A DNA stretch of 64,000 nucleotides from a virus, in the UHGV virus genome UHGV-0021788; one strand, written 5' to 3'. The first letter of the stretch is position 1. Each line of letters opens with the position of its first letter. A model generated the notes under the pieces. It saw only the letters and a program-made list of their open reading frames with translations, was not told the DNA's origin and searched no databases. The translations under genes and the position numbers were made by a program. Shown here in pieces: positions 2,383 to 63,392 of this stretch.

Positions 2383-2396
2383 AGGAGTTGGATATA

Positions 2397-3670
2397 TTGG
2401 AAACTATTAAGAAAAGTGCATTTCAAGAAATTGGTATTCTTAATGATAATGATTATTTTGATATAGTTACTAATACAAATGTTAATAGAAGAATTAAATT
2501 TTCAGCAATGAAAGAAGCTATAAATAATAGTGTTAATTCTTATGTCGATGTTAAAGCAAAAAATGGAAAAATTTTCAGATTAACTGTTAATAATGAAGGG
2601 GAAATAATTTGTCAAAATGCTGAAGCATATACTGCTACTGCTCCAGAAAAAACTGAAAGTGGTAGATTTGCTGGTTTAATGATAAACATGATATATGGTG
2701 GTGGAAATAATAAAAATAATACTGCTTGTTCACATCACTTTATAGAATTATATAATCAAAGTACTAGTAGTATGGATTTAAATTTAAAAGGACTTTATTT
2801 ATCTGTTAAAAGTAATACAGGTGATTGGCAATCTCTTGCATTAGAGGGTATAATACCTTATCAACATTCATTCCTTGTAAGATGTAATCAAGTTTCTAAT
2901 CCTGTACTATTAGGTACTAGATGTAAAATAGATACATATGACCAAGAATGGAATATAGATTTAACTGATGTAGGATTTAGTGCTTATTTATCAATAGGAA
3001 CACCTACAACTGTTAATCCAGCTAATGCAGATGGTAATATGAATAAAGAAGTTGGATATATAGACTTAATGGGTGCTGGTGGAACACAAGAAACACAAGG
3101 AGTTAAAGCTTTTGAAACTGCCTATCCAATGTTGATGACTAAAGATATAGGTTGTAGAAGACTTGACTTTGCTGATACAGATAATAATCAAAAAAACTGT
3201 AGAGCAATAAATTGGAAAACTTGTGATGTAAGTGTCTATAAACCTAGAAGTGTATCAGATGGTAAATGGGACTTATACTTTAACAAAGCAAAACTAAAAT
3301 CTACAATGCCTAATCTAATAAATATGTGTTATGGACAAGATGGTTCTAAAACTAGAACATTTACTTTCCAAACTGTATTAACTGATGAAGGTTATATTAA
3401 ATGGAGAAAATACGGAGAATTAAAATGGAATAAAAAACCTACTACTAAAGAAATAATAACTCACTATGATTGTGATGCTACTTTACATAGAGTTTTTATT
3501 ACTGATTTACAACCTGGAATTTATGAATATCAATGTGGTTCTGAAGGTGCATGGAGTGATATAAGTACTTTTGAAGTAAGAAATTATGCACAAACTGCTG
3601 ATAAAAGTAATTTTGTACATAACGATATAAAAATGTTATGGACTACAGACCAACAAGCATGGACTAACAT
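2397..3670 (+). CDS. Exon 1 of a split purple-acid-phosphatase-like metallophosphatase. It has a ~370-aa N-terminal domain plus a PAP N-terminal-like domain. Probable start is TTG 2397; the listed ORF is 2388..3674.
   Basis: C-terminal ITHYDCDATLHRVFITDLQPGIYEYQCGSEGAWSDISTFEV matches the PAP N-domain pattern. The ORF stops at 3674 just before motif I. The catalytic half lies downstream past a HEG. RBS AGGAG is 9 nt before TTG 2397. Confidence 0.45.
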
Positions 3671-3845
3671 ATAGTCCCTATATTAAGTGATTAGTATAGT
3701 AAATCCTTTGAATTGCTGGTAAATCCTAAAGCCTTATAAACTACAACATGATTAGAAATAATGAGTGTGAATGTTACGAAAGTAGAAAAAATTATAAGGA
3801 TAACATATGGTTAAATCCTAAGTGTTATATACAATGGAAGCTCAG

Positions 3846-3930
3846 CAGGTAAGATTCTAAATTAAATTATTTTAAATACTTGACTTTTAATAAGATAAAT
3901 TGTATAATATAAGTAAAGTGAGGTGATAAA
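3846..3930 (+). repeat. 85-nt HEG promoter/leader block, duplicated at 5984-6069.
   Basis: CAGCAGGTAAGATTCTAAATTAAATTATTTTAAATACTTGACTTTTAATAAGATAAATTGTATAATATAAGTA.AGTGAGGTGATAAA is near-identical in both. Confidence 0.85.
3880..3908 (+). promoter_or_regulatory. Consensus sigma-A-type promoter for the intron-1 HEG.
   Basis: TTGACT, 17 nt, TATAAT. Followed by ATAAGTAAAG and RBS GAGGTGA. Confidence 0.75.
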
Positions 3931-4845
3931 ATGGGAAGAAAGAAAACACATGAGGAATTTATGAAAGAGTTTTATGAAAAAAATCCTAATGCTAAAAATA
4001 TAGAAATATTAGGAAAATATGAAGGTAGAAAAGTAAAAATTTTATGTATGTGTAAAATAGATAACTATAAATGGCATACAACTCCTAATGGATTATTGGG
4101 AAGTAAAAATATTAAACCAAATGGATGTCCGAAATGTGCTGGAAAAATAAAAAAAACACATAAACAATTTATAGAAGAAATGAATGAAATAAATCCAAAT
4201 ATTAAAATATTGGGGCGTTACATAGATGCTAAAACTAAGATAGAATGTGAATGTAAAATAGATGGATATAAATGGGAAGTTGAACCAACTAATTTGCTAC
4301 AGAAAAGAGGATGTCCAAAATGTGCTAATAAAATACCTAGAGAACATGATGATTTTGTTAAAGAATTAAATAACATCAATCCTAATATAAAAATAATAGG
4401 TAAATTTATATCTACTAGAACTAAAATAGAATGTGAATGTAAAATAGATGGATATAAATGGGAAGCTGAGCCAAGACATCTTTTAGGAAATCATGGATGT
4501 CCAAAATGTAATGATTCTATTGGAGAAAAAATAACTTATAATATATTAAATAAATTAAATATAAAAAATATAAGACAATACAAATTTAAAGATTGTAAAT
4601 TTTATAAATGTCTTCCTTTTGATTTTTATTTGCCACAATATAATTGTTGTATTGAAATTGATGGTAAGCAACATGAGAATATAGTCAAATGGTTTGGTGG
4701 GTTAGATGGTTTTATAGATAGAAAAATTAGAGATACGGTTAAAGATATATATTGTAAGAATAATGGAATAAAATTAATTAGAATTACATATAAAGATATA
4801 AATGAAATAGAAAAAATAATTTGTCAAGAACTTAATTTAAATTAA
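3931..4845 (+). CDS. Intron-encoded homing endonuclease, family A. Three tandem ~60-aa zinc-ribbon modules (C-C...GCPKC) plus a C-terminal Vsr-like/DUF559 PD-(D/E)xK (EDxHD-type) nuclease core.
   Basis: Repeats THEEF..NPNIKILG..C.CKIDGYKW..GCPKC x3. C-terminus has FDFYLP...IEIDGKQHE...RDTVKD..GIKLIRI. Own promoter and RBS. Paralog of 6070..6984. Confidence 0.6.
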   Translation: MGRKKTHEEFMKEFYEKNPNAKNIEILGKYEGRKVKILCMCKIDNYKWHTTPNGLLGSKNIKPNGCPKCAGKIKKTHKQFIEEMNEINPNIKILGRYIDAKTKIECECKIDGYKWEVEPTNLLQKRGCPKCANKIPREHDDFVKELNNINPNIKIIGKFISTRTKIECECKIDGYKWEAEPRHLLGNHGCPKCNDSIGEKITYNILNKLNIKNIRQYKFKDCKFYKCLPFDFYLPQYNCCIEIDGKQHENIVKWFGGLDGFIDRKIRDTVKDIYCKNNGIKLIRITYKDINEIEKIICQELNLN

Positions 4846-5005
4846 TTTAATATGAATAAACTTCAACGACTAAGTATCCTAGTAGTCTAGGTAGTGGAGG
4901 ATACCCTTATTGGGTAATGATATAGTCTGCTCTCATGGGAAACCATGAGCAGTTTTTATGTAAAAAAACGGATAGAATAGTAACGATATTCTATTGAACA
5001 TAAGG

Positions 5006-5844
5006 TGTTGAGGAATCACAAGCTACTAATGTTTGTTTCCAAAATATAAGTGAATGGGAAAAAGGTACTGATTTTGATTTTCATTTAAATACAGGCGACA
5101 TTTCGCAAAATGCAAACAGAAGTTTTGAGTGGAGATACCACTATAAATATGCAGATGACCTAATAAGAACTATGTGTCATCAAATAACTTGTGGGAATAA
5201 TGACTTAATAGATAAGAAATATTCAGATGCATTTACATGGTACATGACACCAGAAGATTATTTCTTACCAGACCAAATAGATAGTGGTTCAGGTGTTATG
5301 GTTAATAATCCTAATAAATGTACTTTTAATTCATGTCATAGTTTTGACTTAGGATATGTACATTTTGTTTGTTTAAATAGTAATAAAGATTATTCTATGT
5401 TTAATGAAAATGAAGGTGAAAAAATAGATGATTGGATACAAAGAGAATGTGCATGGTTAGATGCAGATTTAACTAGAGATGAATCTAATGCTAAAACAAG
5501 ATGGGTAATATGTTATATGCATTACGCACCTTTTACAGTATCTAGACCTGACTGGATACAAAGATTTGTTCCTGTATTTGAAAAACATAGAGTACATTTA
5601 GTATTATGTGGTCACAACCATACAAACTCAAGAAGTATTGTAGTTAGAAGTGGTTATGATGGAGACCCAAATAAAGCAAGCTATGACCCTAAAGGTCAAA
5701 AAACAGCTGAAGAAGAAACAGCTTTAGGACATGGTACTATAAATCATAATGAAGATTTAAAAAATGGTACTCTTTACCTAATGATTAATGCAACTGGATT
5801 CAAGAATACAGGTAAAGAAAGTATACAAAATCCTTATCCTTGGT
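5006..5844 (+). CDS. Exon 2 of the split metallophosphatase, the catalytic core. Frame 3 is open from 5004; the listed Met-ORF is 5172..5846.
   Basis: GDISQNAN (GDLSY-like), VICYMHYAP, LVLCGHNHT (GHxH) and LYLMINATG align to PAP motifs. In-frame sequence without an ATG extends upstream to 5004. Confidence 0.5.
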
Positions 5845-6017
5845 AAAAAAATATTGCCACTTTACATAGTAATATGTAATGACAAACTCATTGAATTGCT
5901 GGGACGACCTTAGAGCCTTAATGCCACAATATAAGAGAAATCATTATATGAAGGTTTAAAAAGTTTAAGGATTGGTTAATCAGCAGGTAAGATTCTAAAT
6001 TAAATTATTTTAAATAC

Positions 6018-6046
6018 TTGACTTTTAATAAGATAAATTGTATAAT
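6018..6046 (+). promoter_or_regulatory. Consensus promoter for the intron-2 HEG.
   Basis: TTGACT, 17 nt, TATAAT. The 85-nt block is near-identical to 3846-3930. Confidence 0.75.
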
Positions 6047-6069
6047 ATAAGTAGAGTGAGGTGATAAAT

Positions 6070-6984
6070 ATGGGTAAAAAGAAAACACATGAGGAATTTA
6101 TGAAAGAGTTTTATGAAAAAAATCCTAATGCTAAAAATATAGAAATATTAGGAAAATATGAAGGAAACAATAAACCTATTAAATGTCGTTGCAGAATAGA
6201 TGAATACGAATGGTATCCAAGACCTTGTCATTTATTGGGAAATAAAAATGCTAAACCTACTGGTTGTCCTAAGTGTAGTGGAAAAGCAAAAAGAACAAAT
6301 GAAGAGTTTATTAAGGAAATATATATAATAAACCCTAATATAGAAATACTTAGTGAATATAGTGGAGTTAGTAATTTAATAGATTGTCGTTGTAAAATAG
6401 ATGATTATGAGTGGTCATCAATTGCTGATAATTTATTACATGGACATGGTTGTCCTAAATGTGGAGGACAAATAAAAAAGGAACATGAAGAGTTTGTAAA
6501 AGAAATGGAAGAAATAAATCCCAATATAGAAATACTTGGGGAATACAATGGAGTTCATGAATATATTTTATGTGGATGTAAAATATGTAATCATGAATGG
6601 ACAACTCGTCCTCATGAATTATTAAATGAATACGGATGTCCTTCTTGTAATATATCTCGAGGAGAATTTAAAATAAAAACTTTATTAGAAAAATATCAAA
6701 AACAATATAAATATCAATATAAATTTAAAGATTGTAAATTTTATAATGAATTACCTTTTGATTTTTATTTACCTGATTATAATATTGCAATAGAATATGA
6801 TGGAGAACAGCATTATAAAATAATTAAACAATTTGGTGGAATAAATAGATTAATAGATAGTAAAATAAGGGATACTGTTAAAACTGAATATTGTAAAAAT
6901 AATAACATAAAACTTATAAGAATACCTTATTGGAATTATAAAGATATAGAAAATATACTTATAAAAGAACTTAATTTAAAATAA
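6070..6984 (+). CDS. Intron-encoded homing endonuclease, family A paralog (zinc-ribbon x3 plus Vsr-like/DUF559 nuclease). Start ATG 6070; the listed GTG 6061 is unlikely.
   Basis: MGKKKTHEEFMKEFYEKNPNAKNIEILGKYEG is identical to the N-terminus of the 3931 paralog. C-terminus has DFYLPDYNIAIEYDGEQH...RDTVK...IKLIRI. Confidence 0.6.
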   Translation: MGKKKTHEEFMKEFYEKNPNAKNIEILGKYEGNNKPIKCRCRIDEYEWYPRPCHLLGNKNAKPTGCPKCSGKAKRTNEEFIKEIYIINPNIEILSEYSGVSNLIDCRCKIDDYEWSSIADNLLHGHGCPKCGGQIKKEHEEFVKEMEEINPNIEILGEYNGVHEYILCGCKICNHEWTTRPHELLNEYGCPSCNISRGEFKIKTLLEKYQKQYKYQYKFKDCKFYNELPFDFYLPDYNIAIEYDGEQHYKIIKQFGGINRLIDSKIRDTVKTEYCKNNNIKLIRIPYWNYKDIENILIKELNLK

Positions 6985-7140
6985 TTTAACATGAATAAAC
7001 TTCAACGACTATCCTGTAATGGAGTAGGGTTCAAGCGAACTCGAAGTAGTGAGCATCTTAATAAAGATGAAGATATAGTCTAGTCTCATGGGAAACCATG
7101 AGCAGTTTTTGTGCGTAAAAACAAAACGGGTTAGGTGTAG

Positions 7141-7376
7141 CGAACCTAATTGAATATAACGGGTATGGATTAAGAACTTCACATCCAACACAACCAACTT
7201 ATGCAACATTAACTATAGGTTGGGATAAGATAGAATATAAATGCTATAAGATAATGAACACATTAAGTAAAGATAGAAACGGAAATACAATAGTAGTGCC
7301 TTATGGTAGTCAAACTAAAGAATTGTATGATAGTTGTACTCTTAATTGGAGAGCAAAAGGTCAAACACTAATATAG
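7141..7376 (+). CDS. Exon 3 (C-terminus) of the split metallophosphatase.
   Basis: Frame 3 is open 7119-7376. NLIEYNGYGLRTSHPTQPTYATLTIGW..DRNGNTIV aligns to the PAP C-terminal FGHG...W.RN.DG. A U at 5844 and G at 7140 give an in-frame join (..NPYPW-S-NLIEY..). Confidence 0.45.
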
Positions 7377-7389
7377 GTGGTGATAGTTT

Positions 7390-10065
7390 ATGCCTAATAG
7401 AATTTGGAGTGAAGAAAAAAAAGATTGGATAATAGTCGATGAAACAAATTTAGCTACAAATATAGAAGTAATGGATATCAAAGAGTACTATCATAAAAAG
7501 AAAACAGAAGAAGAAACAAAAGATGATGAATTTTTAAGTGTTGAAAAATGCTTAGAACAAATAGGGGATAAAATAAATAATGGTGATATAGGTGCTATAG
7601 GTGAAATAAAAGATAAAGTACAAGATTTGGATGACAGAGTAACCTATATTGAAGAAAACGGTGGTGGTGGAGGAGGTGGCTCTTCCATGCCTACCGTTAA
7701 ACTTCTTAGTGATAGTTATTATGCTATACCAACCGATGGAGAATTAAATATTTATTATAACTTTACTTCTCCAAATATAGGATTTGGTACAGCATTTATA
7801 AGTTTAGACTATGGAACAGCTGAACAGTTATCAGTTGCACAAGGTCGTAATTTTTATACTGTAAAAAACTTAGAAAAAGGTGAACATAGACTAGATATAT
7901 ATGTAACTGATATAACAGGTTTATTCTCGAATACAGTTACAGTAACAATAGTTGTTGGTGGACTTGAATTAACTTCTAATTTTGACGATAGTACGGATTT
8001 ATCCTTAGAGGATTATATTAGAATAAGATATGTTATCTCAACAATATCTTCTAAGCCAATTGAAGTGTCTATTGAAATAGATGGTAAACTAACAAAAGCA
8101 GAAGGTATAATTGGTCAAAATATATTGGAAGTTGGACAGTTTAGTTCATTAGGGGTTCATACAGTTAAAATATCAGCCGTCAGTGGTGATTTAGTATCAA
8201 ACCAATTAGTATTTAATTTAGTTGTAGCCGATTCAGAAAATCTTTATGTATCTACTACTTTTCCTGATAATTATACTATACAAGTAGGTAAAAACCTACA
8301 AATTGATTATAGAAATAGTATGGTAAATCAAAATAGATTTATTACTCATATGCTTATAAATGGTACTGAAGTAGATACGGTAACATCTTATTCAGGATAT
8401 AACTATTGGAACGTTGGGTCTAATTTAGAGATAGGTTTATATACTTTAACATTATATTCTACTACATCCGATGGTGCATATACATCAAATTATTTAACAT
8501 GGGTAATAGATGTTGTTTCAGAAGACTATGTTCCCTTTAAGGTTGTAACAGATGGGTTATTATGTAATTTTGATGCTAATGGTAATCAACAAACATCTTC
8601 TAGTAGAAACATATGGAAAGACGATAGTGGAAACGACGTTAAATGTGAATTGTTTAATTTCAACTATTCTACAAATGGTTGGATAGATAACAGTTTAGTA
8701 TTTAATGGTAAAACATATGCTAAAATAGATTTTTCTCCTTTTAGTGATAATATCAAAAATGGTATGACAATTGATATGTTATTTAAAGTAAAAAATGTTG
8801 GTGATATAGACGGAAAAGTATTATGGTGTAAAAATCCAATTACACCTTACCAAGGTTTTTATATAAATACTTATGAGGCAAATTGTCGTTCTGCCAACTC
8901 AAGAATAGTTAGTAACCAATTTCAAGATGACACATGGACTAGAATAACATGGGTTATTAATAGAGAAGATTTGACAATGATAGCTTATGTAAATGGTATC
9001 ATAACGAAACCTGTATATATAACAGATACAGAAAACTTTAGAATGGAAAAAGATATTTATCTAGGTGTATCATTTGACGAAGTAGATAACAATTTAGATA
9101 ATGATGGTAATCCAATACCTCACTATGCATCTTGTTCTATAAAAACATTTAGAATATATGATAGAGCATTAACTGATGAAGAAATATTACAAAATCATAT
9201 TGCCGATATAAAAGATAAAGAAAAACAATTGGAAATAAGAGAAAAGAACTATGGTGATAGTACAATGCCTATCATAAAATTTGAAGGTAATGTAGAAGGT
9301 ATGGATGGTAGTATCTATAAATTATTAACAATAGATTATAATGACCCATTAGACCCATCTAAACGTTTTAGACAAGAACAATGTAGAGTAAAATGGCAAG
9401 GTACTTCTTCACTAGAATATCCAGTAAAAAACTATACAATAGAACTTAGAAGTGGTGGTAACGTTTGGGAATATGCTCCTAAAGACAATTGGCTACCAGA
9501 AAAAAGATATACTTTGAAGGCTTCGTTTATGGATAGTTCTACATATAATAACGTTGGTTCTTCTAAATTAATTTATGATTACTTTAGAAAATCTAATATG
9601 TTTTATCCACAAGAAATTAAAAATCCTAAAACTAGAGCAGTAATAGATGGTTTCCCAGTTAGACTTTATATTAATGGGGAATCAAAAGGTATATATATGT
9701 TCAATATAGATAGATATGCTGAAAACAATTATGGATTTTCTGGGGAATCATCAATTGTATCTTATGAAATAGCTGTCAACTCTGAAAGTGGTGCTGGTGC
9801 TTTCGCATCAGATGCTTGGTCAAGTATACGTTCTGAATTTGAAATGAGATATCATTATGCTGGAGATGAAAGTGTTGTATGTGAAACTGTTATGGAAAAT
9901 GGTGTACCAACTACTGTTTTAAAAGCAGGTTTTCATTCAGAATTACAAAATTTAGTTTCATGGGTATTAAATTCTACTATAGAAGAGTTTAGAAGTGAAT
10001 TAAAAGAACATTTTGAATTAAACTTTTTAATAGATTATTATCTATGGGTTCTATGTTTGGGTTAA
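7390..10065 (+). CDS. Tail fibre/receptor-binding protein with a Gly linker, Ig-like beta domains and a laminin-G/concanavalin-like lectin domain. Possibly exon 1 of a larger gene fused to 11689..15081.
   Basis: RBS AGGTGGTGA. LamG-like segment (VFNGKTYAKIDF...WTRITWVINREDLTMIAYVNG...IKTFRIYDRALTDEEI). The stop at 10063 lies right at the start of the intron-like array. Confidence 0.6.
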   Translation: MPNRIWSEEKKDWIIVDETNLATNIEVMDIKEYYHKKKTEEETKDDEFLSVEKCLEQIGDKINNGDIGAIGEIKDKVQDLDDRVTYIEENGGGGGGGSSMPTVKLLSDSYYAIPTDGELNIYYNFTSPNIGFGTAFISLDYGTAEQLSVAQGRNFYTVKNLEKGEHRLDIYVTDITGLFSNTVTVTIVVGGLELTSNFDDSTDLSLEDYIRIRYVISTISSKPIEVSIEIDGKLTKAEGIIGQNILEVGQFSSLGVHTVKISAVSGDLVSNQLVFNLVVADSENLYVSTTFPDNYTIQVGKNLQIDYRNSMVNQNRFITHMLINGTEVDTVTSYSGYNYWNVGSNLEIGLYTLTLYSTTSDGAYTSNYLTWVIDVVSEDYVPFKVVTDGLLCNFDANGNQQTSSSRNIWKDDSGNDVKCELFNFNYSTNGWIDNSLVFNGKTYAKIDFSPFSDNIKNGMTIDMLFKVKNVGDIDGKVLWCKNPITPYQGFYINTYEANCRSANSRIVSNQFQDDTWTRITWVINREDLTMIAYVNGIITKPVYITDTENFRMEKDIYLGVSFDEVDNNLDNDGNPIPHYASCSIKTFRIYDRALTDEEILQNHIADIKDKEKQLEIREKNYGDSTMPIIKFEGNVEGMDGSIYKLLTIDYNDPLDPSKRFRQEQCRVKWQGTSSLEYPVKNYTIELRSGGNVWEYAPKDNWLPEKRYTLKASFMDSSTYNNVGSSKLIYDYFRKSNMFYPQEIKNPKTRAVIDGFPVRLYINGESKGIYMFNIDRYAENNYGFSGESSIVSYEIAVNSESGAGAFASDAWSSIRSEFEMRYHYAGDESVVCETVMENGVPTTVLKAGFHSELQNLVSWVLNSTIEEFRSELKEHFELNFLIDYYLWVLCLG

Positions 10066-10145
10066 TACAATGGCTCAAGTAAAACTTTCTCTGATTAATG
10101 GCGAACACCCTAGTAGAAAAGGGCAACGCTCAAGAAGATTTATTT
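10053..10145 (+). repeat. Direct repeat R (exon-end plus intron 5' segment), copy 1. Copy 2 is at 11123-11218.
   Basis: TTGGGTT-AAT..GGCTCAAGTA.AA.T.TCTCTGATTAATGGCGAACACCCTAGTAGAAAAGGGCAACGCTCA.GAAGATTTA is ~90% identical between the copies. Confidence 0.8.
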
Positions 10146-10154
10146 AACAATATT

Positions 10155-10183
10155 TTGACTTTTAATAAAATAAGTAGTATAAT
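10155..10183 (+). promoter_or_regulatory. Consensus promoter for the GIY-YIG HEG.
   Basis: TTGACT, 17 nt, TATAAT, then RBS GGGGTGA. Confidence 0.75.
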
Positions 10184-10204
10184 ATAAATGAAAGGGGTGA
10201 TACT

Positions 10205-10915
10205 ATGAGTGAAAATAAATATTATGTTTATGAATGGATTAGATTAGACACAAATGAACCATTTTATGTAGGTAAAGGTTGTGGAGATAGATGGAGGAAT
10301 TTATATAGGGATTACAATCCTCGTTTTATGAATATAATAAATAAAGTACCAGTAGCAGTATCAATATTAATAAATAATTTAACAGAAAAGGAATCTTTTG
10401 ATTTTGAATGTTATTATATATGGTTATATAAAGATATTATAGGATATGATATATGCAATATAAATGAAGGTGGGGAAGGTCAAAGTTTATGTGGTGAAGC
10501 TAATGGTTTTTATGGTAAACATCATTCAGAAGAAACTAAAAAATTATTAAGTGAACAACATAAAGGCATGACTTATTCTCAAGAGACAAAAAATAAATTG
10601 AGTGCTATGAGAAAAGGTGAAGGGAACGCTATGTGGGGACGTAGAGGAGAATTATCTCCGCATTGGGGTAAAAAATATTCAGAAGAAAGAAAAAATAATA
10701 TTAGTAAAGCAATGGGTACTTCTGTAAAGTGTATTGAATTAAATATAGAATTTAATAGTCTTAATAAAGCAGAAAAATATATGATTAAAGAATATGATAT
10801 TAAATTTTCTCATAAAACTTTAAAAGCTACGATAGAAAAAAGAAGAAAAAAAGATTGGTATGGAGAAATAGAAATTAATGGAGAATTAATTAAACTTCAT
10901 TGGGAATATTGTTAA
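10205..10915 (+). CDS. GIY-YIG homing endonuclease (I-TevI/Seg-like) with NUMOD3 repeats and a C-terminal DNA-binding domain.
   Basis: YYVYEWIRLDTNEPFYVGKG..R..N GIY-YIG motif. Repeated GKHHSEETKKLLS / SQETKNKLSA NUMOD3-like units. Confidence 0.75.
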   Translation: MSENKYYVYEWIRLDTNEPFYVGKGCGDRWRNLYRDYNPRFMNIINKVPVAVSILINNLTEKESFDFECYYIWLYKDIIGYDICNINEGGEGQSLCGEANGFYGKHHSEETKKLLSEQHKGMTYSQETKNKLSAMRKGEGNAMWGRRGELSPHWGKKYSEERKNNISKAMGTSVKCIELNIEFNSLNKAEKYMIKEYDIKFSHKTLKATIEKRRKKDWYGEIEINGELIKLHWEYC

Positions 10916-11670
10916 ATAAAATCACTTGCAACGACTGAGTGAGAAAGGCTTAAAGATTAATTCTTTAAGTAAGCAACAGTCTGAACTTGCGAATATAATT
11001 TCTACAAAAAACAAATCGCAGAAGAGGGGTCATCGGTAATCAGACCGATTAAAGAAGAACCCCTCTCGCCAACTTAGGTTGGTCAGTAGCCGAAAGGTGA
11101 AAGTAACAGAATGCTAGTAGACAACTTGGGTTTAATGATTTTGGCTCAAGTATAAAATTCTCTCTGATTAATGGCGAACACCCTAGTAGAAAAGGGCAAC
11201 GCTCAGGAAGATTTATAAAATCACCTGCAACGACTGAGTGAGAGAACACTTATTTAAGTGAAGCAACAGTCTGAACTGCAAATATAATTTCTACAATAAC
11301 AAATTGCAGAAGGAAGTTGAAGTGCTTCCTCGCCAACTCAAGTTGGTCAGTAACCGAAAGGTGAAAGTAACAGAATTGAAAAATATGGTTTTAACAACTT
11401 TCGGTATGAATGCTGAAGGTAACGTAATTTGGTATCCATCCTTTGACATAGGAGGATGTAAAACTCTCTTTAATTGACTTGGAAGTCCTGAAGAGGACGA
11501 CAGGGGGCAAGTTTAAATACAGCCTGAACGACTAAACAAGAGAGCATTATCATATTGATAATGATGTGATAGTCTGAACTCTAGTAATAACTTGTTTTAA
11601 TGAAACTAGAGAAGGAAATCCGAAGTGTTTTCCTCGCCATAAAATATTATGGTCAGTAGCTTAGGAATAA

Positions 11671-14600
11671 GTGAAAGTAACAGAATGGTATGATGCAGAC
11701 TCAGAGTTGGGTTTAACCAACGATGGTGAGTTAAGATACGGTTCAGGTATCGACACTTTAACAGATAATTTCAATACTTCTGATTCTAAATTATGGACTA
11801 AATTACTAGAAGCTTTCCCAGATGAAGTACAAGCAAGATATATCTATATGAGAAGTAATGGATTTATGACTTATGAAAATATTATAAAATATTATGAAAA
11901 TATAGCAGATACAATTGGTCAAACATTCTATAATGAAGATGCAAGACTTAAATATATTAATGAAGATAATAAATCATTTATTTATATGTGTAATGGTTCA
12001 AGACTTGAACATACAAAAAGATGGTTAAGCGAACGTATTGTATATATGGATAGTAAATTTAACTATGGTGATTTCTTATTATCTTCTACTATACGTTCAA
12101 ATGTTTCCGGTGAGGTATCATTAAAAGTAAAAACATATTCACCTCAATGGGTAGAAATATCTTTCTCAGATAGTGCTACAGGTACAACAAGACAATGGTG
12201 TAGTAAAGATAAATGGTATACATTTATAAATACCATTGAAAATGCCGTCGACAACAATATCACCATTAGAGGTGTAACTAATATAATGTATTTACAAGGA
12301 TTAGAAAATTTAAATGTATCTTCTTTACTTGTATCAAATGCAAAAGGTTTATGTGAAATTGATATTCATGGTTCTAAACGTATTCAAAGATTGGAACTAG
12401 GTAACAATATCATGTTACAAAAACTTAATTGTAAAGATTGTATTAATTTAGGTATTGATGATAACTATAAAGTTGTTAACTTGGAAAAATGTATCAACTT
12501 AAAATATCTTGATTTATCTAATACTATGATAGGTACACTTCAATTAAATAAAGATGGTGGTGCATTAGAATATTTAGATTTATCTGAAACAGAATTAACT
12601 TATTTAACTTGTAACCATCAAGAATATTTACCTGAAATAAAATTAGATGGTTGTAAAAATCTATCATCTGTTACTATTAATGGTTGTAATGCATTAACAA
12701 GATTGAGTTTACCTAATACTAAATTAGCTGAATTTACTGTAACAGATTGTAATAGTTTAAATTACCTTGATATATCATATACTGGTTATTTAGTAAAATT
12801 AGATTTAACAGGTTGTAGTAGTTTAACTACTTTAATAATGTCAGGTATAGCAAATAATAAATTTACTGAATTAGATGCGAGAACATTAACAAAATTAACA
12901 ACATTAGATGTGTCTAAATGTTATTTCTTAAATAATATAAGATTTGCTAATGGATATAATGCTTTAACATCTGTAAACTTCCAACAAAGTGGGATTAAGA
13001 CTTTACAGTTTGGAAATAATGAAAAACCTCCTTATTTAGATTTATCTCCATTTAATTTAACAGAAGTTAATTTCTATAACTGTACTGAAATAGAATATAT
13101 TAAAAATATAAAATTATATGCTACAAAATCCATAGAACCTTTTTATAATTGTGTTAATTTACACACTATAGAAGGTACTATAAGTTTAACTGATGATTTA
13201 GGAAGAAGTTTTTATAATTGTAAAAAACTAGTTAATTTACCTACTTTAGATTTAAGTAGAGTTAAAACAGCTTCGGATTCCTTTATGCATTGTGAGTCTT
13301 TAACTTATGACCAATTACTAGAAATTTTAGGTAAGATGAATAATTGTCAAAGTTTTTATAGAACTTTCCAAAACTGTTTAGCTATGGAACATGACGGTTG
13401 GGAAAAAGCTTTATTCGATAAGATACCAAAAGCAACTTATTTTTATTGGACATTCTCAGATACTCCAATAAGCGGACAATTAGAGCAAGGAATCTTTGAT
13501 AGTTTATTAGATTTACAAACTGTAGATGGATTATTTAGCGGTGGTAAGGCAAAAGGTTATATTCCAGCCAATCTATTCAAATATAATACAAAATTACAAA
13601 ATCTTTGGAATCTATTTAATGGATGTAAAGAATTAGAAACTGCTACTAATATAGTAAACATGTTTACCACTACAGTAGATTTAAGAGGTATAGAGGGATT
13701 ATTTAGTGGTTGTACTAATGCTTTTATGAAACTAAGTGATACATGGTTTGCAAATTGTCCAGAGCTACAAAATATGGATTATGCTTTTGCAAATTGTACA
13801 AACTTAATTGGTTCTATAGCTGAAAATCCTCATATGATAAAAAATAAATCTAAATTAACAACAGCAGAACATACCTTCCTTAATTGTACAGGCATAAGTG
13901 GTGATTTACCTGATGATTATTTTGTTGGGTGTACTGCTTTACAAGAAATACAAGGACATTTTCAAGGATGTACTGGTCTAACAGGAACTCCTAAAACTGA
14001 ATCATGGATAGATTGTGAAAATATAACTAATGCTTCATATTTATATGCAGGATGTACTGGTTTAGGTGGTATAGCAGGTGCTACTCAAGAAATACCTAAA
14101 GATTTCTATAAAAGAAAATATAGACTTATAGATATATCTGGTATGTGGCAAGGTTGTAATCAACTACAATTTTCTCTAATGCCATTAAAAGAAGATAAGT
14201 TAGGTGAGGATGGAGCTGTTATAGAAAAAGGGGACGACCCTTGGTTTGTTGATTGTAGACAGTTAGCGAAAATAAATTATCTATTTGATGGTTGTAGTAA
14301 TTTATCATCTGTAATACCTTCTAGGTTATTTGAAGTTTGGGATGAAAAAGGCGAAGTAATGGATACACTTATAACAGAAGCTAAAGCGGTATTTAAAAAT
14401 TGTCAATTACTTACAGATGAAATACCAGAAAATCTATTTGAAAAATTTATTAAAGTTAGAGATTTAACTGAATTTTTCTATCAATGTAGAAGTTTAACTG
14501 GTGGTATTCCTGATACATTATTTTCTAATTGTTATTCTTTAGTTTATGCTAATAGAATGTTTATGCGTTGTGGTAAATTAGGAAAATATGCAGACCAAGT

Positions 14601-15081
14601 AACAGAAGAAGAGCCATATTTCTGTAATGAAGAACTATTTTGGAACTGTCCTAACCTATTGGAAATATCTCAATTATTCCATATGTATGATGGATGGGGA
14701 ACTTCTCTAAGAGGAGACATACCTCCATTGTTATTTAGAGCTAATCCTAAATTACAAAATATAAATAATGCCTTTGCTGGTTGTAGTCTTTTAACTGGTG
14801 GGTTGGATGGGCAACTATTTGTTAGAAATGCTAAATTAAAAACTGCTAGAGAAACTTTCCACGGTTGCTCAGGTTTAAATGGAGAAATGAGTGGAGCGTT
14901 ATTTACCTCTACTAATAATCCACTTTTAACAGATTTCTATCAAACCTTTCAAAATTGTAAAAATATACAAGGTACTGCACCTTCATTATGGACACAATTC
15001 TCTAATGCAAATGGTGGAGGATGTTTTAATGGATGTACTAAATTAAGTAATTATGCAGATATACCTTCACAATGGAAATAA
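11671..15081 (+). CDS. Large adhesin/receptor-binding protein with classical LRRs and many BspA-type (LRR_5) F.GC..L.G repeats. Listed GTG start 11671 is doubtful; it may be exon 2 joined to 7390..10062 from 11689.
   Basis: LDLSNTMIGTLQL..LDLSETELTYL LRRs. More than 12 FxGCxxLxG/IPxxLF units. Weak RBS; the N-terminus overlaps ribozyme core C. Confidence 0.6.
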   Translation: MKVTEWYDADSELGLTNDGELRYGSGIDTLTDNFNTSDSKLWTKLLEAFPDEVQARYIYMRSNGFMTYENIIKYYENIADTIGQTFYNEDARLKYINEDNKSFIYMCNGSRLEHTKRWLSERIVYMDSKFNYGDFLLSSTIRSNVSGEVSLKVKTYSPQWVEISFSDSATGTTRQWCSKDKWYTFINTIENAVDNNITIRGVTNIMYLQGLENLNVSSLLVSNAKGLCEIDIHGSKRIQRLELGNNIMLQKLNCKDCINLGIDDNYKVVNLEKCINLKYLDLSNTMIGTLQLNKDGGALEYLDLSETELTYLTCNHQEYLPEIKLDGCKNLSSVTINGCNALTRLSLPNTKLAEFTVTDCNSLNYLDISYTGYLVKLDLTGCSSLTTLIMSGIANNKFTELDARTLTKLTTLDVSKCYFLNNIRFANGYNALTSVNFQQSGIKTLQFGNNEKPPYLDLSPFNLTEVNFYNCTEIEYIKNIKLYATKSIEPFYNCVNLHTIEGTISLTDDLGRSFYNCKKLVNLPTLDLSRVKTASDSFMHCESLTYDQLLEILGKMNNCQSFYRTFQNCLAMEHDGWEKALFDKIPKATYFYWTFSDTPISGQLEQGIFDSLLDLQTVDGLFSGGKAKGYIPANLFKYNTKLQNLWNLFNGCKELETATNIVNMFTTTVDLRGIEGLFSGCTNAFMKLSDTWFANCPELQNMDYAFANCTNLIGSIAENPHMIKNKSKLTTAEHTFLNCTGISGDLPDDYFVGCTALQEIQGHFQGCTGLTGTPKTESWIDCENITNASYLYAGCTGLGGIAGATQEIPKDFYKRKYRLIDISGMWQGCNQLQFSLMPLKEDKLGEDGAVIEKGDDPWFVDCRQLAKINYLFDGCSNLSSVIPSRLFEVWDEKGEVMDTLITEAKAVFKNCQLLTDEIPENLFEKFIKVRDLTEFFYQCRSLTGGIPDTLFSNCYSLVYANRMFMRCGKLGKYADQVTEEEPYFCNEELFWNCPNLLEISQLFHMYDGWGTSLRGDIPPLLFRANPKLQNINNAFAGCSLLTGGLDGQLFVRNAKLKTARETFHGCSGLNGEMSGALFTSTNNPLLTDFYQTFQNCKNIQGTAPSLWTQFSNANGGGCFNGCTKLSNYADIPSQWK

Positions 15082-63233: not shown

Positions 63234-63392
63234 CTACTTCTGTAGCAGGTTTCAATGCTTGTTACAAGCTTCCCTATTCAACGTGTTCTCTTTCGTTTTA
63301 AACTACTTGAGTTTTTTACAACACTCCAAGGGCGTAAATTCGGACTTGAACGTTCCTACATATTAATTTGTTTTTATTTCTTATTTACTTAA

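Follow-up and report, generated by a model that had tools for sequence, protein, structure and literature searches.

Do two large open reading frames (ORFs) that lie 1.6 kb apart in a viral genome belong to a single gene, and what is the DNA between them? The question arises in a stretch of 64,000 nt from the genome UHGV-0021788 (the window, meaning this stretch at its full length), where ORFs 7390..10065 (891 amino acids, aa) and 11671..15081 (1136 aa) flank a smaller one of 236 aa at 10205..10915. A previous interpretation, made from the letters alone (the sequence-only reading), had seen the interval as one intron 5' segment followed by an array of three ribozyme cores with degenerate exon copies between them, the whole being spliced out in one step (U10062 to G11688). 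We conclude instead that 7390-15081 is very probably one four-exon gene with three independent group I introns, I1 to I3, of one widespread phage intron family. The three introns fall within 84 coding bases; dense as it is, the locus is a phage intron cluster of a familiar sort and adds no novel class of element. Its predicted parts, numbered by position in the window, are as follows.

7390..10062, + strand: exon 1 of 891 codons, with the N-terminal region, a Laminin_G_3-like region and the first half of a CotH kinase-like domain
10063..11113, + strand: intron I1, 1051 nt, group I with a type A P4-P6 domain; last base G11113
10139..10920, + strand: insertion in the terminal loop of P6a in I1, closed by a 16-bp perfect inverted repeat (10139-10154 / 10905-10920)
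10155..10183, + strand: promoter-like site, TTGACT-17-TATAAT, sigma-70-like with 11/12 matches, followed by a Shine-Dalgarno-like AAAGGGGTGA
10205..10915, + strand: homing endonuclease gene; its 236-aa product has NUMOD3 motifs (three) and YVY..(10)..YVG in the N-terminal part
11114..11131, + strand: exon 2, 18 nt, CTAGTAGACAACTTGGGT, encoding LVDNLG
11132..11378, + strand: intron I2, 247 nt, ORF-less group I, type A; last base G11378
11379..11444, + strand: exon 3, 66 nt, encoding KNMVLTTFGMNAEGNVIWYPSF
11445..11688, + strand: intron I3, 244 nt, ORF-less group I with a type B P4-P6 domain
11689..15081, + strand: exon 4, 1130 codons and stop; rest of the CotH-like domain and leucine-rich repeat (LRR) region

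When the exons are joined (7390-10062 + 11114-11131 + 11379-11444 + 11689-15081), they yield 2049 codons with a single terminal stop. In the unspliced sequence, in-frame stops occur 0, 7 and 10 codons past the three 5' splice sites, beginning with a TAA immediately after exon 1, which ends ..TGT TTG GGT. A distant BLASTN match linked both flanks to one uninterrupted gene, gp353 of Bacillus phage G (2055 aa), and the four-exon product aligns to gp353 with no gap across the junction (..GMVDNLGKNMVLSTWGKNSQGNTVWYPSFYDVDS..). The single splice also joins 10062 to 11689 in frame, as had been pointed out, and its product (..LCLG|YDADS..) aligns to gp353 over the full length at 38% identity, but with a gap of 28 residues at the junction, opposite MVDNLGKNMVLSTWGKNSQGNTVWYPSF. 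These 28 residues, which the uninterrupted homologues carry between what are here the two ORFs, are matched residue for residue by the translations of exons 2 and 3. Against the Pfam CotH profile (PF08757), the four-exon product matches positions 2-299 of 322 in one stretch with 58.1 bits (gathering cut-off 23.8), whereas the single-splice fusion scores 38 bits and stops at profile position 183; exon 1 alone covers positions 2-182, with Laminin_G_3 just below its cut-off. That the two ORFs are parts of one gene in need of splicing is thus borne out by the gap-free alignment and the restored CotH match. The single splice is not, since it would delete 28 conserved residues of the CotH-like catalytic region. 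LamG and LRR regions had been recognized in the predicted protein; its length becomes 2049 aa instead of ~2020 aa, and the CotH kinase-like domain had gone unmentioned. The spliced product would comprise this domain, a lectin-like (LamG-like) domain and leucine-rich repeats; the CotH-like region gave no match to solved structures.

Are the two micro-exons genuine? What had been taken for degenerate copies of the start of exon 4, and for the scar of repeated duplication, resembles that start only through the 10-mer TTGGGTTTAA; there are no duplicated exon scars, and the stretches are native coding sequence. Compared with four relatives, exon 2 has no non-synonymous and 3-5 synonymous codon differences, and exon 3 has 2-4 non-synonymous and 6-9 synonymous ones. 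Invariant residues in a five-sequence alignment (G90, V92, D93, G96, K97, N98 and W114) cluster at the micro-exons. Exon 3 is contiguous with exon 2 in the relative L236, and with exon 4 in L239 and L006. Most of 246 metagenomic relatives (best 68% identity) are continuous over the sites, in a scan whose search pattern spans the I2 site and which is therefore biased toward uninterrupted alleles; a scan of viral contigs with the junction peptide of the window found no match, its patterns being too specific. Judged by these comparisons, 11114-11131 and 11379-11444 are real coding exons. A tandem duplication of "intron plus 18 nt" was considered and ruled out, as the 18 nt are native coding sequence and the protein has no extra residues relative to its homologues.

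All three introns interrupt putative catalytic motifs of the CotH kinase-like domain, near the DxxxxN loop and immediately ahead of YDxD. Exon 2 includes the Asp of the kinase-type DxxxxN catalytic-loop motif, and exon 4 starts with YDADS, a putative metal-binding Asp motif. From what is known of protein kinases, we take the D..(4)..N in VDNLGKN to be the catalytic loop, YDxD to be the metal-binding motif, and the K of TLKA, presumably, to be the ATP-binding lysine. Homing endonucleases are known to aim at the codons of residues that are critical (PMC3984707), and this assignment would fit that tendency.

What, then, are the intervening sequences? The three homologous 3' core regions noticed earlier are real: a core motif, AGTCTGAAC, occurs at 10978, 11268 and 11571, and a 20-nt tail, GTGAAAGTAACAGAAT, is common to 11097, 11361 and 11671. 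The tails are not all alike in the way that had been quoted, however, since the third (..GCTTAGGAATAAGTGAAAG..) lacks GAAAGGUGAAAG. The 5' segment is indeed duplicated (10080-10143 / 11153-11216, 95% identical), but its second copy, at 11143-11218, is not a stray duplicate; together with the second core it makes up the whole ORF-less intron I2, of which it is the 5' half. Further repeat pairs lie at 10916-10944 / 11215-11243 and at 11065-11112 / 11329-11376 (94%). I1 has the same architecture as I2, with the endonuclease gene added in the P6a loop, where I2 has only GAUUU-AUA-AAAUC. There is no single 5' segment serving three cores; a separate P1 with guide, a separate P3-P8 core and a separate terminal G belong to each intron. 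Nothing is nested: the introns stand side by side with coding exons between them, so that of the two terms offered, twintron and tandem-intron locus, only the latter applies.

The group I assignment was examined by covariation. Introns were extracted with a hidden Markov model and regular expressions and aligned with MAFFT. For the I3 type (42 non-identical introns), the structure set consisted of P3, P4, P5, P6, P7 (forming a pseudoknot with P3), P8, P9, P9.1, P9.2 and P9.3. From P3 to P9.3, 97.4% of 1822 cells are in standard pairs, compared with 36-45% in controls slid by 1-3 columns; 31 of the 44 pairs change on both sides, and values as high as those observed came up in none of 500 shuffles. 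The alignment of the I1/I2 type comprises 14 sequences; here 98.8% of cells are paired (34-43% in slid controls), with changes on both sides in 22 of 30 pairs. The compensated differences between I1 and I2 comprise two pairs in P3 and one in P6, while P8 and P9.1 are different hairpins. Since all differences in the core helices are compensated, both paralogues appear to have been kept foldable, and all three introns retain every invariant position of the family. The hairpin substitutions quoted in the sequence-only reading are likewise real and lie in P9.1 and P9.2, two helices with covariation throughout the family. By these alignments, I1-I3 fit the canonical group I core with its P3/P7 pseudoknot. 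A run of A residues connects P1 with P3, and P2 and P7.1/P7.2, which are features of IA2, the subgroup typical of phage introns, are not present in I1-I3, where P3' runs straight into P8.

Further evidence comes from P1. In I1, the exon sequence UUUGGGU (10056-10062) pairs with the guide GCUCAAG (10073-10079), with a U.G pair at the splice site; P3 is formed by 10085-10091 / 10941-10947, and P7 lies within 10931-10937 / 10977-10982. In I2, exon CUUGGGU pairs with the same guide (11144-11150), P3 is 11158-11164 / 11240-11246, and P7 lies within 11230-11236 / 11267-11272. Both introns are thus preceded by UUGGGU and carry GCUCAAG 10-12 nt into the intron. I3 is different: CAUCCUU(U) pairs with (G)GAGGAUG (11451/2-11458), with P3 at 11464-11470 / 11538-11544 and P7 within 11528-11534 / 11570-11575. 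The 3' ends are ..AGAAUG, ..AGAAUUG and ..AGAAUG(G), with a terminal G in all three. Across 12 combinations of intron and site (the three window introns and nine from relatives, at six sites), there are 6-8 contiguous P1 pairs, all ending in U.G. At one site (site 0 below), the exon/guide variants are GCCUGU/GCAGGC, GCGAAU/GUUCGC and GCGAGU/GCUCGC, the guide following synonymous exon codons; at another (site 2), they are UUGGGU/GCUCAA and CUCGGU/GCCGAG.

The family is not confined to this gene. At least 120 IMG/VR contigs contain its tail motif, GTCAGTAR..TGAAAGTAACAG, and an I3-like intron interrupts a P22-type coat gene in MW202674. Three IMG/VR phage contigs (L017, L023 and L100) carry two introns of the family 420-860 nt apart, and clustered insertions are therefore not unique to the CotH-like gene.

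As had been proposed, one of the introns contains a homing endonuclease gene, which lies in the P6a loop of I1 behind the near-consensus promoter-like site described before. The protein matches Pfam NUMOD3 three times (5e-12) and PHROG 314, "homing endonuclease", over residues 1-218 (9.6e-19). A near-identical cassette of promoter and ribosome-binding site (TTGACTTTTAATAA[A/G]ATAA..GTATAATATAA....GGTGATA) is found at 3880-3930, 6017-6060 and 10155-10204 in the window, preceding each endonuclease gene that lies in an intron there (two of HNH type, one GIY-YIG-like), and also precedes the endonuclease gene of L006. The site-0 intron of L155 (8124-8360) retains only ~150 nt of the 3' end of the endonuclease gene, which suggests decay, and the intron at that site is ORF-less in L236 and has an intact ORF in L007. 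In phage G (L001, 8942-9078), the free-standing gp355, annotated as a GIY-YIG endonuclease, lies two genes downstream of the intron-less gp353; the metallophosphoesterase gp352 is directly upstream of gp353, and the gene order is the same in the relatives of the window.

How are the introns distributed among relatives? Within ~220 codons of the CotH-like region, at least six insertion positions are found:

site 0: after TLKAx
site 1: after CLG
site 2: after LVDNLG
site 3: after WYPS(F/L)
site 3b: after YDxD
site 4: after (E/A)(L/F)G plus one base

and the closest strains occupy them in different combinations:

window: sites 1, 2 and 3
L239, L240 and L242: sites 1, 2 and 4
L236, L237 and L238: sites 0, 1, 3 and 4

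These three types of strain share 97-99.7% protein identity. Among more distant relatives there is one intron in L007 (site 0) and one in L150 (site 4), and phage G and most of the 246 metagenomic relatives (a scan favoring uninterrupted alleles) have none at these sites. Each intron of the window has both occupied and vacant counterparts. At site 1, L007 carries an intron-less allele (..GTATTGGGT|CTTGTC), whereas L236 and L239 have an I1 copy that is 95% identical (995/1053). I2 is present in L239, L240 and L242 and absent from L236, L237 and L238, and the orthologous site is filled in L005 and L006. The I3 orthologue of L236 is identical at 240 of 244 positions; the site is vacant in L239 and L006. 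Exon 4 has a TTGGGT at 11707-11713 (codons ELG) that matches the I1/I2 guide, and one base past it lies site 4, filled in L236, L239, L150 and L211 and vacant in the window.

Other arrangements in relatives are less regular. In L241 (3421-3690), a site-2 intron runs into the 3' junction of a site-4 intron, and the loss of 91 nt of exon causes a frameshift. The site-2 and site-4 introns of L239 share an identical tail of ~60 nt, and L241 would therefore represent either recombination between tandem introns (a real deletion) or assembly collapse. L154 (1-300) has an I3 orthologue whose guide co-varies with the exon (CGUCCUU/GAGGACG). The sequence following ..VVWY in L153 is not intron-like, perhaps a chimeric contig, and was left aside.

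The exons themselves bear traces of this history. Where the window and L236 differ, the changes are concentrated in the 21 nt upstream of the three sites that only one of the two has filled (0, 2 and 4), and all are synonymous; elsewhere there are 0-2 differences per 60 nt. The exon sequences in the window and L236 are ttgaaggcttcg and ttgaaagcgagt at site 0 (both LKAS), ctagtagacaacttgggt and ctagtggataacttaggg at site 2, and gcagactcagagttgggtt and gccgattcagaacttggat at site 4. The vacant alleles also lack the guide match. Such clustered synonymous changes would be the expected trace of co-conversion in endonuclease-driven homing, if the cut falls upstream of the insertion site, and, together with the different sets of introns in near-identical strains, they point to introns that move one by one as DNA. 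They also argue that I2 came by DNA-level homing and not by reverse splicing from I1. The possibility that I2 is a recent intragenomic reverse-splicing copy of I1 was ruled out on three grounds. Its 5' half shares 93% identity with the endonuclease-containing site-2 intron of L006 and 89% with I1; there are strains that have I1 without I2; and the synonymous differences that separate exon 2 from the vacant allele, four in number, are clustered, as if left by homing with co-conversion.

If they follow the usual route of group I introns, the three would be spliced as follows. Each would pair its own guide with the last 6-8 bases of the upstream exon, forming P1 with U.G at the cleavage site, fold a P3-P9 core with the P3/P7 pseudoknot, bind guanosine and end in G. 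Two transesterifications would excise each intron, and the ligated mRNA would encode the 2049-aa protein. The endonuclease gene of I1 would be expressed from its own promoter and ribosome-binding site, I2 and I3 being devoid of ORFs. Presumably, an endonuclease would cut the intron-less allele of a co-infecting relative, and repair would copy the intron together with ~20 nt of the upstream exon; the activity of the enzyme and its cleavage site are inferred. In this scheme the exon-intron boundaries are placed by homology, and the RNA structure by covariation.

Several points weigh against the four-exon gene as drawn here. The boundaries of I3 are uncertain by one base (11445-11688 or 11444-11687); both registers are in frame and differ as F or L at one residue, exon 3 ending at 11443 with L if the intron is shifted. 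With the register CCUU|, each of the three orthologues has U.G, and the end is ..AAUG as in most family members; CCUUU| is the sole one that keeps L154 in frame. The 3' junction of L154 (..GTAATAGTTGTG|GCAGAC) would drop the conserved YD codons. No convincing P10 pairing of I1 with exon 2 was found by eye. The Rfam search that the sequence-only reading had proposed (Intron_gpI included) gave no intron match, either at the gathering threshold in the window or at E <= 10 in 9800-12000, where only chance snoRNA- and miRNA-like matches appeared. This says little, because two further intron-like sequences upstream in the window were also missed; the negative reflects the reach of the models, and the structural alignment, also proposed, does not support absence of a group I fold. 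The GIY-YIG label of the endonuclease is affected as well: Pfam GIY-YIG (PF01541) has no match to it even at E <= 10, TIGR01453 matches only weakly (0.003, below cut-off), and no solved structure in the PDB matches. Full-length homologues at 52-59% identity do have Pfam GIY-YIG, and the motif YVY-x10-YVG is present; we therefore regard the enzyme as a putative member of that type. Finally, an assembly error in the exact combination of sites 1, 2 and 3 is possible. Short-read metagenome data underlie the assemblies of the window and of most relatives, and repeats as long as 64 nt are common to the introns; the pairs 1+2 and 1+3 each occur in independent contigs.

Could the locus be explained differently? 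A single composite intervening sequence, with one 5' segment, three redundant cores, exon-fragment scars and one splice from U10062 to G11688, would give an in-frame junction, and since I1 and I2 share their guide and upstream hexamer, exon skipping, with exon 1 ligated at a 3' splice site further downstream, is chemically conceivable, a process known from Twort orf142 and phage SIOphi (PMC10136302, PMC11878797). Its product, however, would lack 28 residues kept in all uninterrupted homologues, the CotH alignment breaks at its junction, and the supposed scars evolve like coding sequence. Each of the three units, moreover, has its own P1 and guide and occurs alone in related strains, and we give the composite sequence almost no credence. 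Alternatively, the introns may be present in a broken gene, with at least one inactive ribozyme or a mis-assembled locus, and with the ORFs expressed separately or reduced to a pseudogene. ORF 11671 has an in-frame GTG start, but this GTG is part of the conserved 3' tail of I3, and no separate ribosome-binding site precedes it. L241 and L154 could be cited as defective or collapsed versions in assemblies, and I1 is without an obvious P10. On the other hand, every core-helix difference between I1 and I2 is compensated, all invariant family positions are kept in the three introns, and the flanking and intervening exons are under purifying selection, which makes a broken gene improbable.

A variant of the four-exon gene is heterogeneous splicing, in which exon skipping would generate isoforms that stay in frame but are shorter, in the catalytic loop, by 6, 22 or 28 residues. 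The elements for it are there: GCUCAAG is identical in I1 and I2, both upstream exons end in UUGGGU, and the exons of 18 and 66 nt are both multiples of three. Engineered tandem introns with identical splice-site elements skip a short exon in E. coli (PMC10136302), and Twort orf142 skips a 23-nt exon (cited in PMC10136302). A product without LVDNLG is plausible by this analogy. The differences between I1 and I2 in P3, P6, P8 and P9.1 should nevertheless disfavor hybrid ribozymes, and skipped products would lose invariant residues; we consider such isoforms possible but doubtful.

The four-exon gene also raises the question of how one guide came to serve several sites. GCUCAA(G/A) recurs at sites 1, 2 and 4 (the last in L143, L150 and L211), all following UUGGGU. 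Sites 1 and 2 lie 18 nt apart in the window and share, by inspection, a flank of only 6-7 nt, UUGGGU. A single ribozyme lineage with this guide may have colonized the three sites by guide-directed transposition of the reverse-splicing type, an idea that we put forward only tentatively. The recurrence fits either such transposition or selection for splicing competence after any insertion, and the data do not separate the two; the reverse-splicing pathway itself is without direct experimental support, according to a review (PMC3984707). Were it true, this would be natural evidence for guide-directed group I transposition in phage protein-coding genes. The identical P1 of I1 and I2 would then have a side effect, in-frame skipping of the 18-nt exon and hence isoforms whose kinase catalytic loop is altered.

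The closest precedent for the arrangement is orf142, the tail tube gene of Staphylococcus phage Twort, which, in the passages of PMC10136302 and PMC11878797 that summarize Landthaler and Shub 1999 (PNAS 96:7005), has three introns of group I, including a pair of close paralogues, a 23-nt exon and exon skipping. The candidate virion gene described here shares with it the three introns with two close paralogues, and the very short exon between introns (18 nt instead of 23 nt). We also take the core motifs GCAACGACU.. and ..AUAGUCUGAAC to resemble those of the Twort introns. The differences are that the host gene here encodes a 2049-aa protein with CotH-like, LamG-like and LRR regions, that one of its introns has an endonuclease gene, that its three introns lie in 84 coding bases, and that they have neither P2 nor P7.1/P7.2 between P3' and P8; exon skipping, shown in Twort, is only predicted here.

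For the endonuclease-bearing intron, the model is T4 td with I-TevI, in which an endonuclease gene with its own promoter likewise lies in a peripheral loop of a phage group I intron; in td, too, this loop is P6a. NUMOD3-type DNA-binding motifs and a stop codon soon after the 5' splice site are common to both, as are exon changes upstream of the insertion site, expected for a cut ~20 nt upstream (predicted here). I-TevI cuts at 23-25 nt. Unlike in td, the N-terminal domain of the enzyme here has no significant match to Pfam GIY-YIG or solved structures, and the intron subgroup features differ.

Essential phage genes split by two or three group I introns, with small internal exons, are known from other groups as well. 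In the Bastillevirinae, genes for polymerase, terminase and reductase contain as many as three introns, with short exons between them and cases of exon skipping (PMC11878797), and "Jug" jumbo phages of the gut have a mean of 18.5 group I introns per genome, with many also in crAss-like phages (PMC12880540). In such multi-intron phages, ORF-less introns of ~200 nt are common and standard models often miss introns (PMC11878797, PMC12880540). Those reports, however, center on the genes for DNA polymerase, terminase, ribonucleotide reductase and thymidylate synthase, whereas the target here is the CotH-like domain of a giant LRR protein, with at least six insertion sites in ~220 codons. In ribosomal DNA, related group I introns at different positions have been taken as evidence of reverse splicing (PMC1299323; review PMC3984707). 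Similarly, what looks like a single lineage of ribozymes with the guide GCUCAA(G/A) occupies sites 1, 2 and 4, but here the genes are protein-coding phage genes, and the co-conversion-like exon tracts at the polymorphic sites point to homing at the DNA level in preference to insertion at the RNA level.

The neighboring DNA shows a related pattern. The upstream gene (2394-7373) encodes a metallophosphoesterase (764 aa), uninterrupted in L007, that lies in three pieces in the window (2394-3665, 5007-5843 and 7164-7373). The two intervening sequences (approximate limits ~3666-5006 and ~5844-7163) each contain an HNH homing-endonuclease ORF (3931-4845 and 6061-6984, both matching PHROG 559). They have group-I-like core motifs (CAACGACTA...GATATAGTCT) of a family different from that of I1-I3, with no Rfam match; counting them, there would be five introns in 9.3 kb. 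The sole Rfam match in the window is a RAGATH-18 RNA at 63270-63332 on the (-) strand (68 bits against a gathering score of 44.9).

What does the locus mean for the phages that carry it? At the level of annotation, one gene of 2049 codons would replace a pair of "fibre/adhesin" ORFs, an endonuclease gene that seemed free and "intergenic" DNA of ~750 nt, a gene whose exons of 18 and 66 nt would escape gene finders and of which Rfam gives no warning. The locus stands out by its density, with three introns and an exon of 18 nt packed into 84 coding bases, by its CotH-like/LRR target and by the mosaic of occupancy at the level of strains. The insertion sites across relatives, at least six in number, all lie at predicted kinase-type catalytic motifs. 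Near-identical strains with different subsets of introns form a natural allele series, with co-conversion-like tracts beside the polymorphic sites.

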